Source of the DNA: Escherichia coli
GTDB lineage: Bacteria; Pseudomonadota; Gammaproteobacteria; Enterobacterales; Enterobacteriaceae
Assembly: GCF_003334305.1 (NCBI RefSeq)
Contig: NZ_QOWS01000003.1
Length of the DNA: 64,000 nt
Reading direction: 5' to 3' (one strand)
The position numbers and the translations under genes are program-made. Numbering within the stretch: the stretch's first letter is position 1; each line of letters starts with the position of its first letter. Under the pieces are notes generated by a model. It worked only from the letters and a program-made list of their open reading frames with translations. It was not told the origin of the DNA and did no database searches. Shown piece after piece: positions 23,984 to 28,927 of this stretch.

Positions 23984-24964
23984 TCACTTTTCGCGCCAAA
24001 ACTGCAAAATTGCTTCTACAAACCTGTCAGAAATAACCCCCCGACGGGCTGCCGTGCTGAAATGACTGCTTCGCAGTGCCGTCGTCCAGTTCTCCGGTGA
24101 CCGGTACGCTGAACCGTAATATCCCGTGCTTAAATCGTCCGGGTCTTCATCAGGCGCGTTCGTCAGTCCTCTTTCACCTTGTTGCTGGAAGTCGACGAAA
24201 ATAATATTGGCTAAAACATTATTTTGATAATTGCCATAAATAGCTTCATACGAATGCGGGAAATTTTCTTTCCAGTACCAGGTGGTATCGCCGCAAAACC
24301 ACGGCGCGTCAGTAATATTATTAAGCTGAGAATGGTATTGTTTTAGATCCCTACGAAAGGCTTCAACCATATGATTAAAGTGTTGAGGGTGTGACGCGTA
24401 GTCACTGGTCATTAAGTCAAATTCGCCTTGCATCCAGCATACGCCGAGGAATTTGTTCTGCGGATTTTTTGCCAGTGCGGCTCGCGTTCTGCTGACTAAA
24501 TCCTGGTATAGCGGAGTATCCGATCCCCAACGACAAGCATCATGGCTGGCTCCGTGCCGTTCTGAATATGTCCCTTCGCTGCCCGCGATAAAAGCCGAGC
24601 CGCCACGACAACATGGAACGATGAGAACCCCTGCATTATCAGGAATAGAGGGCAGTAATTTCCGTGCAATATGCAGTGCCTGGCCAACGGTGCCGTACTG
24701 TGTTTGATGATTCGTTGCCAGAGGATGGTGATAACCCTGCATATCCTGAACATCGTGTGGGCAGTGAGTCAGTGGAATAATGTCGTTAAAGTGACATGAC
24801 GGGCCTCCGGGATGCGTATGCGCAAATCTCGCTAATTGTTTAATTCTGGGATGAGGCGCATCTTCCCTGTCCGGTAATGGCAGTCCTTCGCCATACGCCA
24901 TGGCATTAGACTGACCAGCAACGGTAAGAACATAGTAATAATCGGGCGATATTATTGCGTTCAT
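23984..24964 (-). CDS. nanS: 9-O-acetyl-N-acetylneuraminate esterase
   Basis: Product from MNAIISPDYYYVLTVAGQSNAMAYGEG... (about 326 aa) matches remembered NanS/YjhS. Confidence 0.9.
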   Translation of the reverse strand: MNAIISPDYYYVLTVAGQSNAMAYGEGLPLPDREDAPHPRIKQLARFAHTHPGGPSCHFNDIIPLTHCPHDVQDMQGYHHPLATNHQTQYGTVGQALHIARKLLPSIPDNAGVLIVPCCRGGSAFIAGSEGTYSERHGASHDACRWGSDTPLYQDLVSRTRAALAKNPQNKFLGVCWMQGEFDLMTSDYASHPQHFNHMVEAFRRDLKQYHSQLNNITDAPWFCGDTTWYWKENFPHSYEAIYGNYQNNVLANIIFVDFQQQGERGLTNAPDEDPDDLSTGYYGSAYRSPENWTTALRSSHFSTAARRGVISDRFVEAILQFWREK

Positions 24965-25028
24965 ATAAATTTCGCGTAATTGAAATGACAAATTGATAGC
25001 AGGGCCCCTTTACCGGGGCCCTGAAGCG

Positions 25029-26154: not shown

Positions 26155-26871
26155 CTACAGTTTAAATGACACACCAATGCGATAACTGTTTTCCGATAAA
26201 TTATCTCTGCCGTTGTAAACACCCTGACGGTCCAGGTAGTCATATTCTATGTATGGCGTAATATCGGGCGTCATATGGTATTGTAGAACAAATGCATTTT
26301 CCGTCGCCCATTTCTTATGGTTTGCATAGCGATAATCGTTCTGTTTGCTGTATAGCGTCGTTTGCCATGCGAAGGTGAAATCACTATTAATATGGTAAGT
26401 GACATATCCATCCCAACGATGAACGTTATCACGAGACATATCACCGGATAAGTCTTGTTGTCGGTAAGCTTTCCAGTCGTAACGATAGCGAATGCCAAAA
26501 TTAAGATCTTTTGTCGCGTCCCAGGACAGTTTTACGTAGGGTCCGTAGCGTGTGCCGTTGCTGCTAAAATGCGTTAACATTCCCGGGCGCACCGTCCATT
26601 GATCATCAAGTTTAATCGCGTAATTAACTTCAACCTGAACATCATTGAGTGCGGCATTTTCCTTTTTATTATCATGAATGGTATTCCAGGTATTACTTTC
26701 CATGCTTGCCCACCATCCATTTTGCCATCCCTCACTGACTTTGAGTCGAGTCTCATAGGCGTGGCTTCCACTACGATATCCACCACGTACGTCCAGTGTT
26801 GCAGCCTGAGAAATTAATGGTGACGAAAAGCACAGTAATAATACGCCAGAAAGTATTTTAGCCTTTTTCAT
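26155..26871 (-). CDS. nanC: N-acetylneuraminic acid outer-membrane channel (KdgM family porin)
   Basis: Product MKKAKILSGVLLLCFSSPLISQA... with signal peptide, beta-barrel character and a terminal F; matches remembered NanC/YjhA. Confidence 0.9.
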   Translation of the reverse strand: MKKAKILSGVLLLCFSSPLISQAATLDVRGGYRSGSHAYETRLKVSEGWQNGWWASMESNTWNTIHDNKKENAALNDVQVEVNYAIKLDDQWTVRPGMLTHFSSNGTRYGPYVKLSWDATKDLNFGIRYRYDWKAYRQQDLSGDMSRDNVHRWDGYVTYHINSDFTFAWQTTLYSKQNDYRYANHKKWATENAFVLQYHMTPDITPYIEYDYLDRQGVYNGRDNLSENSYRIGVSFKL

Positions 26872-28324
26872 AAATTTCACTCATTTGTAGGATACAGAAA
26901 GCAATACAAAGCCCGCATAAACAATTAGCATTTATGTTGTGTAGTATTTTTTGCCAGGCTTATAGTGTCTTTGGCAACCGATAGCTGTATTTTATATTTT
27001 TTGTATAATGTCTCCTGTGAAAAATCTCTTTCCACATTATTTAAATAAACAGAGAGCCAGATTAAATACTTGAGTATAAAATCTCTGCTGATGTTTAATT
27101 GATTTGAATGTTCGTAAGCTATATCACTTACTCAATTCATTTTACCCAGAGTCATAAAATAGAGTGTCTGTTGATCTCATTTTCATATTCCTTTCAGACT
27201 GAAGTGCATTTTCATCACCCGATGAGAAAGAACTGAAGTGATGTTTGCCATAGATTACGAGATGCCCAGTCTCATTGCCTATCGTGGTGCACCTTTATAC
27301 CTGTTATACCAGATCAAAAATCACGCAATCCATACAACGAAACCAGATTTGCAATTCGTGTCACAAAATATGTCGATCTTTTTCTAAGAAGAAGATGCCA
27401 TGTGAAGCCAGACGAACACTTGCGGAGGCCTTCACAAACCAAAGATTGTTGTTTAATTGTATGTTTTATAAGTAATTTATTTAAAGTATAAACAAGGAAA
27501 GATTTGCAAGCTAACTCAGTGAGCGTGGTGAAAATCAGTGTTTACCCGCCATCAGGCTGAGCATAATTCTCATCATGAAATATGTTTCCTGGTTTGTGGC
27601 TTGTAACTGGTCACTTCTGAAGTCGATCTGGAGAGGCTTGTTGATGTTGGTGTTTTCAGGATGATGTTTCACTTAGTTTGTTTGCCGTATCGCCCGGCGA
27701 ATGGCTGTGATTGAGGAAGGTTTAAGTCGTAGTGACCAAAGCTATATTTACCAACGAATGTAGATGAAAAAATCATCTCCTGCGTTCCCCATATCTCCAG
27801 GATAAAAAGGAATGTAACAATCTCATGGCGTAAGCTGACGAATCAGCCAGGAATAATCGCTAGGGACCTAAGAATTAGCATGATAATAGCCACTAAGAAA
27901 TTACTGCGCTCCATGAAATAGCCATTTTGTGGCAAATGGAGTTGACTAATAATGTCATATGTGAGACGGCTAGTTGAACGAATATTAAATTTTGCTGAAT
28001 TTTTTATGTTGATTTTACTTGTTACAGAACATATCACATGATATATAGATAAGATTAGTTGCATTAATGATGAGGGTTATTATTAGATTCGTATCCGATT
28101 GATAAATATATAAAGGTACATAGCATGCAAGAGCATGGCGTTTGTATGGCAACGTTATTATAATTAACTGTTGCTACTCCATTTAAGTTCACTCAGAAGA
28201 ACTGGTCCACTTACGTTAGTTATTAAGCAAACGTTCGCTTTTATAAACATAATCAGGATAAAAATGTTGGATTATTGCTAACCCAGCACAGCTAGTGCGC
28301 GTCTGTAATTATAAGGGAAAAACG
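26872..28324. promoter_or_regulatory. Long AT-rich nanC-fimB intergenic regulatory region
   Basis: About 1.45 kb without a convincing ORF between the divergent nanC and fimB genes; by recollection this region carries the fimB and nanC promoters and NanR/NagC/IHF sites. Individual sites were not located. Confidence 0.6.
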
Positions 28325-28927
28325 ATGAAGAATAAGGCTGATAACAAAAAAAGGAACTTCCTGACCCATAGTGAAATCGAATCACTCCTTAAAGCAGCAA
28401 ATACCGGGCCTCATGCAGCACGTAATTATTGTCTGACTTTGCTTTGTTTTATTCATGGTTTCCGGGCGAGTGAAATTTGTCGATTGAGGATTTCGGATAT
28501 TGATCTTAAGGCAAAGTGTATATATATCCATCGATTAAAAAAAGGCTTTTCAACAACGCATCCGCTATTGAACAAAGAAGTTCAGGCTTTAAAAAACTGG
28601 TTGAGTATCCGTACTTCGTACCCGCATGCTGAGAGCGAGTGGGTATTTTTATCTCGTAAGGGAAATCCGCTTTCTCGGCAACAGTTTTACCATATTATCT
28701 CGACTTCCGGTGGTAATGCCGGGTTGTCACTGGAGATTCATCCGCACATGTTACGCCATTCGTGTGGTTTTGCTTTGGCGAATATGGGAATAGATACGCG
28801 ACTTATCCAGGATTATCTTGGGCATCGCAATATTCGTCATACTGTCTGGTATACCGCCAGCAATGCAGGGCGTTTTTACGGCATCTGGGATAGAGCCAGA
28901 GGACGACAGCGTCACGCTGTTTTATAG
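28325..28927 (+). CDS. fimB: Type 1 fimbriae switch recombinase FimB (tyrosine recombinase)
   Basis: MKNKADNKKRNFLTHSEIESLL ... HMLRHSCGFALANMGIDTRLIQDYLGHRNIRHTVWYT (200 aa). Confidence 0.95.
   Translation: MKNKADNKKRNFLTHSEIESLLKAANTGPHAARNYCLTLLCFIHGFRASEICRLRISDIDLKAKCIYIHRLKKGFSTTHPLLNKEVQALKNWLSIRTSYPHAESEWVFLSRKGNPLSRQQFYHIISTSGGNAGLSLEIHPHMLRHSCGFALANMGIDTRLIQDYLGHRNIRHTVWYTASNAGRFYGIWDRARGRQRHAVL

Follow-up and report, generated by a model that had tools for sequence, protein, structure and literature searches.

Organization of the nanC-fimB locus

The 64-kb window analyzed here, by which we mean the whole stretch of Escherichia coli DNA at its full length, contains a divergent gene pair in which the ATG of nanC at 26871 (minus strand) and that of fimB at 28325 (plus strand) stand 1453 bp apart. 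The locus is delimited by the following features:

26155..26871, minus strand: nanC coding sequence (N-acetylneuraminate outer-membrane channel), from the ORF list and the RefSeq annotation of strain A7; left flank
28325..28927, plus strand: fimB coding sequence (type 1 fimbrial switch recombinase), from the ORF list and the strain A7 RefSeq annotation; right flank
26872..28324, no strand assigned: nanC-fimB divergent intergenic regulatory region, 1453 bp, GC 0.36

Both the NanC and the FimB proteins carry standard RefSeq WP accessions. The initial annotation had singled out the interval between them as an unusually long, AT-rich non-coding gap of 1.45 kb, and this description holds to the nucleotide: the spacer measures 1453 bp at the coordinates above, with a GC content of 0.362 versus 0.482 for the whole window (0.30-0.45 in 200-bp windows inside the spacer), and is the largest stretch without an ORF of at least 110 aa in the 64 kb scanned, the runners-up measuring about 0.7 kb. 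The further statement that it holds no convincing ORF is likewise borne out, the two longest frames (73 and 66 aa) each being disrupted in 8 of 9 other E. coli strains. Self-BLAST revealed no second copy of the spacer in the 64-kb window, and no direct, inverted or tandem repeats were detected in it besides the NanR repeat described below.

The spacer is 100% identical to that of E. coli strain A7 (orangutan faeces), and of 5426 complete E. coli genomes, 5021 contain at least 80% of it, most of them with 95-99% identity; annotated features underlie it in almost none of the complete genomes that carry it. The closest well-studied counterpart is the nanC (yjhA)-fimB interval of K-12 MG1655 (4539502-4540956), which has the same flanks and orientation, a length of 1455 rather than 1453 bp and about 97% identity. 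The NanR, NagC, SlyA and H-NS sites, the OLE (ops-like element) and the promoter are identical between the two alleles, with only four differing positions in the fimB-proximal 800 bp and the remaining differences confined to the nanC-proximal 660 bp. RefSeq annotates no feature in the 1455-bp gap of MG1655, though the recent entries ythB and fimR2 (an sRNA) are listed nearby. The locus has been placed on the leuX genomic island (PMC4374849), and a spacer of 1456-1458 bp has been cited by Ishihama's group as unusually long between divergent genes (PMC3946193). The nanC-fimB spacer is in this sense a real feature that was already known in detail.

A distal module of NanR and NagC operators

The features on the nanC side of the spacer are:

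26872..27287, minus strand: nanC-proximal segment, putative nanC leader of about 415 nt
27288..27310, minus strand: NanR operator GGTATA-aca-GGTATA-aa-GGTGCA, two perfect repeats and one degenerate repeat, reading towards nanC
27312..27315, no strand assigned: Dam site GATC adjoining the NanR operator, from motif search
27350..27372, plus strand: NagC operator O_NC1 TGCAATTCGTGTCACAAAATATG, exact match to 'fimB1' of FITBAR Table 1 (PMC3098098)
27373..27561, no strand assigned: inter-NagC spacer, AT-rich, 189 bp, hypervariable in sequence and fixed in length
27562..27584, plus strand: NagC operator O_NC2 CATAATTCTCATCATGAAATATG, exact match to 'fimB2' of FITBAR Table 1 (PMC3098098)

Control of fimB by NanR and NagC had been described in the initial annotation, together with the suggestion that GGTATA repeats, NagC motifs and IHF motifs be sought. 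Both kinds of operator proved to be present, in agreement with the K-12 literature (PMC3173223). The GGTATA scan located the NanR operator at 27288-27310 with its adjoining GATC; the tandem pair at 27296-27310 (minus strand) is the sole such pair in the 64-kb window, and TRF reports a period-9 repeat at 27291-27310. All 11 Escherichia sequences compared below share the 20-nt sequence TATACCTGTTATACCAGATC (27296-27315) without change, and some of them vary at the degenerate third repeat. The operator lies 744-766 bp upstream of the fimB start at 28054 and 425 bp from the nanC ATG.

NanR operators of the sialoregulon are of the GGTATA repeat type (PMC8012715), and NanR binds no more than 5 bp from GATC sites with time-varying methylation at nanA, nanC and yjhB (PMC5155068). 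In K-12, NanR represses nanCMS from this operator (PMC3658417), and when Neu5Ac was present in genomic SELEX with K-12 DNA in vitro, NanR retained one target, the nanC/fimB spacer (PMC5934670). The operator resembles the NanR operators of nanATEK-yhcH and yjhBC in its tandem GGTATA repeats, its adjoining GATC and the repression of the adjacent nan operon (PMC8012715, PMC5155068), but differs from them in possessing a degenerate third repeat (GGTGCA) and in acting also positively, on an oppositely directed gene about 750 bp away. The nanC promoter probably overlaps this operator, which would give the nanC transcript its leader of about 415 nt; TATAAC and TATAAA are both possible -10 hexamers. 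A CRP-like TGTGA half-site (minus strand) overlaps O_NC1 and would sit at -61.5 or -71.5 of the putative nanC start.

Both published NagC operators are present as exact 23-mers, and a second GATC follows O_NC1 immediately, at 27375-27378. We scored the 64-kb window with a position weight matrix built from eight NagC sites outside fim, of the nagE-nagB type and with O_NC1 and O_NC2 excluded: O_NC2 ranks first (score 19.8) and O_NC1 second, so that the two highest-scoring sites in the window are the two operators. Compared with the divergent Escherichia E69, O_NC1 carries one substitution and O_NC2 matches at 21 of 23 positions. The distances of 212 bp between O_NC1 and O_NC2, measured start to start, and of 54 bp between the NanR operator and O_NC1 are the same in 11 of 11 sequences, and the distance from O_NC2 to the SlyA operators varies between 313 and 341 bp in the same set.

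In K-12, fimB is activated from a distance, by NanR and NagC at operators some 470-760 bp upstream of the promoter, and the effect is lifted by Neu5Ac and GlcNAc (PMC3173223). NagC targets including fimB need two sites and looping (PMC5401889), and the invariant 212-bp spacing would reflect cooperation of the two NagC sites through a DNA loop. At nagE-nagB and other two-operator NagC loops, two 23-bp operators are likewise jointly needed for cooperative looping (PMC5401889); the nagE-B loop represses adjacent promoters, whereas a loop at nanC-fimB would be situated hundreds of base pairs upstream and activate fimB, in combination with a NanR operator at a distance of 54 bp.

Work by Sohanpal in 2007 is said to have found that IHF is required, with a site between the NagC operators. 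Exact consensus matches for IHF, CRP, Lrp and H-NS were absent from the spacer, and allowing one mismatch returned an IHF-like site alone: a match to WATCAANNNNTTR at 27469-27481 (minus strand), near the midpoint between the NagC operators, which is not conserved in E69.

SlyA and H-NS sites, fimB promoter and leader

The fimB side of the spacer holds the following features:

27851-27860, plus strand: H-NS3 GAATAATCGC, overlapping the SlyA operators; sequence from PMC3173223
27860-27871, plus strand: SlyA operator O_SA2 CTAGGGACCTAA, exact match to the sequence in PMC3173223
27875-27886, plus strand: SlyA operator O_SA1 TTAGCATGATAA, exact match to the sequence in PMC3173223
27880-27889, plus strand: H-NS2 ATGATAATAG, overlapping the SlyA operators; sequence from PMC3173223
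28019..28054, plus strand: fimB sigma-70 promoter, -35 TTGTTA at 28019-28024 and -10 TATATA at 28042-28047, hexamers assigned from the published start
28054..28324, plus strand: fimB 5' leader (PMC3911127)
28136-28147, plus strand: OLE TGGCGTTTGTAT, in the fimB leader
28279-28316, plus strand: MicA target in the fimB leader (PMC3911127)
28313-28318, plus strand: Shine-Dalgarno AAGGGA, in the fimB leader

Operator positions in this study derive from secondary sources, that is, from papers quoting the sites (PMC3098098, PMC3173223, PMC3911127). fimB has been assigned a sigma-70 promoter and a 271-nt 5' UTR (PMC3911127), which places its transcription start near 28054 (28325 minus 271), in agreement with the SlyA positions. 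The SlyA operators have been mapped to -194 to -167, overlain by the H-NS sites ATGATAATAG and GCGATTATTC (PMC3173223); the corresponding sites are present within 27851-27889 at the distances predicted from that report, in a block (27856-27895) that is 90% identical to E69. Promoter and leader together differ from K-12 by one base. The fimB promoter itself, at 8/12 matches, falls under the threshold of our promoter scan.

The initial annotation had proposed, from its length and AT-richness, that the region might be bound by H-NS. Such binding is documented for K-12, in which an H-NS footprint extends from about -500 to +150 of fimB (PMC3173223) and SELEX assigned an H-NS flag and two RpoD holoenzyme peaks to the nanC-fimB spacer (PMC3946193). 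The sequences of the K-12 H-NS sites that overlap the SlyA operators occur here in AT-rich island DNA (GC 0.36 versus 0.48), the footprint and the SELEX flag both being K-12 data.

Conserved operators are separated by hypervariable DNA

A FimB-based scan of species-representative genomes recovered FimB orthologues from eight other genera, with loci in Klebsiella, Raoultella, Citrobacter, Enterobacter, Shimwellia, Yersinia and Samsonia among them, plus Escherichia E69. In many of the other genera 0.5-1.7 kb upstream of fimB is poor in ORFs. These loci share no upstream DNA similarity with the spacer, and an adjacent NanC, a NanR tandem repeat and a strong NagC pair are all absent from them, which suggests that the sugar-sensing module is specific to Escherichia. 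Since no upstream DNA is shared across genera, cross-genus footprinting is impossible and E69 alone is usable; in this divergent Escherichia 14-20% of 4-fold degenerate sites in nanC/fimB differ, and it served as the outgroup. The alignment comprised 10 E. coli sequences (the window, MG1655 and eight genomes spread over the identity range), with E69 as the 11th. Mean pairwise differences among the 10 E. coli were:

27995-28060, core promoter: 0.000
O_NC2: 0.009
NanR plus O_NC1 island: 0.012
Flanking third codon positions: 0.035-0.048
27585-27855: 0.073
27373-27561, inter-NagC spacer: 0.077

Comparison with other E. coli, another check put forward in the initial annotation, thus recovers the operators as conserved islands held at fixed 54- and 212-bp spacings. 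No variation occurs among the 10 E. coli in the NanR operator, in O_NC1 or in the core promoter at 27995-28060, and O_NC2 carries one substitution in one strain. The islands recur against E69, with identities of 93-97% at 27289-27388, 90-93% at 27916-27975 and 78-97% over promoter and leader, 40-column windows over 27995-28052 reaching 95-97%. The nanC-proximal segment up to about 27228 is roughly neutral (about 82-90% identity). The DNA between the islands falls to 15-60% identity, well under the neutral expectation, and the inter-NagC spacer is 47-60% identical versus 80-86% at 4-fold degenerate sites.

This inter-operator segment is hypervariable in sequence yet fixed in length, the sole observation here that we consider mildly new. 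It contains zero indels in the 11 sequences, whereas 27585-27855 accumulates them, and across 5075 E. coli genomes its length stays at 189 bp, although most of them match the window there at only 80-95% identity. The allele of strain A7 is a minority form (at least 95% identical in 695 of the 5075 genomes) and, compared with MG1655, does without the extra GATC that K-12 has there. The E69 allele has no full-length match in complete E. coli genomes, the best full-length identity being about 81%.

As an observation in its own right, 27373-27561 and 27585-27855 diverge 1.5-3 times faster than synonymous sites and form distinct alleles within E. coli. The 189 bp of the inter-NagC spacer are kept exactly even at about 50% divergence.

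A shared control region and its alternatives

Taken together, these data support, with near certainty in our judgement, a reading in which the spacer serves nanCMS and fimB jointly, as their divergent control region on the leuX island of E. coli. A doubtful extension of this reading is that 27373-27561 and 27585-27855 are not neutral filler, and that lineages tune fimB and nanC output by swapping spacer alleles, with operator phasing held by selection. Tuning could then proceed through DNA bending, H-NS nucleation or loop geometry and, if real, would amount to heritable variation in the rate of fimbrial phase switching. The comparative map, which sets constrained operators, spacings, promoter and leader against the fast-evolving parts, could guide allele-swap work on differences in fimbriation between strains.

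That the spacer additionally hides an unannotated sRNA or small-protein gene, for instance a plus-strand transcript that would start from a near-consensus promoter (TTGGCA-16-TATATT, 26971-26998) and run antisense to the nanC leader, or a short ORF, appears very unlikely. Two long leaders would leave room for such a gene, and this plus-strand sigma-70-like site, with a 10/12 match, coincides with hexamers to which a SELEX RpoD peak was assigned (PMC3946193). However, promoter-like sites in the spacer number 4 versus 6.9 expected from shuffles and terminator-like sites 1 versus 0.9 expected, the lone terminator-like hairpin lying in the fimB leader, and the nanC-proximal part evolves about neutrally relative to E69. 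RNA folding is at shuffle level (z-scores of -0.12 for the fimB leader and +0.89 for the putative nanC leader), and Rfam returns no match in the spacer at E-values up to 10. The suggestion of the initial annotation that unannotated small RNAs might be encoded here thus drew no support from Rfam families, from an excess of promoters or terminators, from fold signals or from the annotation of MG1655, whose gap is empty despite the new small proteins and sRNAs nearby. Permissive E-values did yield a Gut-1 match, at chance level and outside the spacer, which was discarded.

PGAP places a 'hypothetical protein' in the spacer of one genome in about 5000 (EFF60); a 49-aa ORF at 27238-27387 has GCG in place of its start codon in one strain, and a 45-aa ORF at 28015-28152 is the one ORF that remains intact with its start codon in 10 of 10 strains. 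The intactness of the latter is uninformative on coding, because the promoter and leader DNA there barely varies. Eleven ORFs reach 30 aa or more, and the remaining 10 are broken in start, stop or frame in at least one of the 10 strains, among them the 66- and 73-aa frames with their losses in 8 of 9 other strains; coding was rejected on this ground.

Least probable of all is a historical explanation in which, beyond the two promoters, the length is decayed, H-NS-silenced, horizontally acquired leuX-island DNA and neither length nor spacing has a sequence-specific role: the island location (PMC4374849) with low GC, the faster-than-synonymous divergence of large parts of the spacer, and the FimB loci of other genera without shared upstream DNA, NanC, NanR tandem repeat or strong NagC pair would all fit it, but the conserved blocks are discrete and fall on operators that were defined by experiment, the 54- and 212-bp distances are free of indels in 11 sequences despite 40-50% substitution between the sites while neighbouring 27585-27855 gains them, the distal sites matter by K-12 genetics (PMC3173223), and pseudogene remnants are not detectable, tblastn and the upstream ORFs of other genera giving noise-level matches only.

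Proposed regulation of fimB and nanCMS

Within the shared control region, regulation of the K-12 type probably holds in this strain as well, the sites being read from the sequence here and their binding and outcome taken from the K-12 literature. NanR and NagC bound at the distal module would raise fimB transcription, and NanR would also repress nanCMS. Sialic acid would release NanR, and GlcNAc-6-phosphate, formed from GlcNAc, which itself arises in sialic acid catabolism, would release NagC. Upon their release fimB expression, and with it FimB-driven OFF-to-ON switching of type 1 fimbriae, should fall, and nanCMS should be induced. At the proximal end, H-NS is expected to cover the AT-rich stretch between about -500 and +150 and to silence the fimB promoter, in competition with SlyA at 27860-27886, and the 271-nt fimB leader could add post-transcriptional control via MicA. 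Roughly half of E. coli genomes have an inter-NagC spacer that differs by at least 10% from the one in this strain, and the quantitative behavior of the module may therefore differ. In such a scheme, established for K-12, the region ties sugars that the host releases in inflammation (sialic acid and GlcNAc) to the display of type 1 fimbriae, a major colonization and urinary-tract virulence factor, and in this wild strain from an orangutan the module is intact.

A comparable architecture is found at csgD-csgB (755 bp), which was cited alongside nanC-fimB (PMC3946193). It is likewise a long, AT-rich, divergent spacer upstream of a surface-adhesion regulator, bound by H-NS, IHF and many transcription factors, and it shares with nanC-fimB two RNA polymerase peaks and H-NS silencing. 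It differs in responding to other regulators and signals, in being half as long and in having its control sites nearer to the promoters, versus distances of 470-770 bp in nanC-fimB.

Rapid divergence between the regulator-binding sites of the nanC-fimB spacer

The two stretches that separate the operators of the nanC-fimB spacer, 27373-27561 between the NagC operators and 27585-27855 between O_NC2 and the SlyA sites, were found to diverge faster than synonymous sites, with a mean pairwise difference of about 0.075 as against 0.035-0.048 in the synonymous comparison. Relative to the outgroup strain E69, identity falls to 15-60% in these inter-operator stretches whereas it holds at 80-86% at 4-fold sites, and distinct alleles of both are already present within E. 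coli. The first stretch is exactly 189 bp long in all sequences examined, while the second gathers indels instead. Among these, a 12-bp insertion (ATACACAGTCTG) lies at about 27803 in strains SaT040 and N1 (loci L009 and L010), and the same interval carries insertions of 17 bp and 14 bp in E69. SaT040 and N1 are also the two most divergent of the E. coli sequences compared.

E69 itself is labelled 'E. coli' (CP089930.1, locus L013), and its NanC and FimB are about 99% identical to the window proteins; its intergenic region shows just 79-88% identity or thereabouts. This spacer allele is absent from complete RefSeq E. coli genomes, where the best full-length match reaches about 81%, and E69 probably belongs to a cryptic Escherichia lineage serving as a species representative in its own right. 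Two further assemblies carry FimB sequences 100% identical to that of E. coli: a contig of 3.3 kb from an 'uncultured Bacteroides sp.' bin (L012), in which the E. coli spacer is also present at 96% identity, and a 449-bp contig attributed to 'Jiangella anatolica' (L034). Both appear to reflect contaminated or mis-binned public assemblies.

A sigma-70-like pair facing fimB

At the nanC end of the spacer, 100 bp from the nanC ATG, we find a near-consensus sigma-70-like pair (TTGGCA-16-TATATT, 26971-26998, + strand), directed at fimB from a distance of 1.3 kb. The same hexamers are listed as a constitutive 'fimB' promoter in a genomic SELEX study (PMC3946193), a position that differs from the mapped fimB start at about 28054. 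If active, this candidate promoter would run antisense to the nanC leader.

Variation in the flanking genes

In some E. coli, including strain S1-IND-02-A (L011) and hit H29, the fimB transcription start is followed after about 7 bp by an IS1A element (window ~28061), which links it to the C-terminal remnant of a fimbrial-protein gene adjoining gntP, presumably fimH. The variant lacks fimB and the greater part of the fim operon and keeps the entire upstream regulatory region together with nanCM.

On the opposite side, nanS, the third gene of nanCMS, encodes a sialate O-acetylesterase. Its annotation is truncated, with the C-terminus missing, both here (23984-24991) and in S1-IND-02-A (L002, 1527-2093), and the operon of the window strain is effectively nanCM. 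Upstream of the truncated nanS lies a defence island (3966-24991, - strand), whose PADLOC matches include the following products:

Products of the defence island matched by PADLOC
mad6/PD-T4-6-like kinase
HerA/mad8-like ATPase
type I specificity subunit, mad5-like
type I methyltransferase, mad2-like
restriction-enzyme-like protein
HNH protein (RefSeq name 'phosphorothioated DNA-binding restriction endonuclease')

PADLOC returned no match for the island ORFs of 1428, 447, 433 and 410 aa. The island looks like a MADS-type methylation-associated system, and its place is occupied by other island DNA in K-12.
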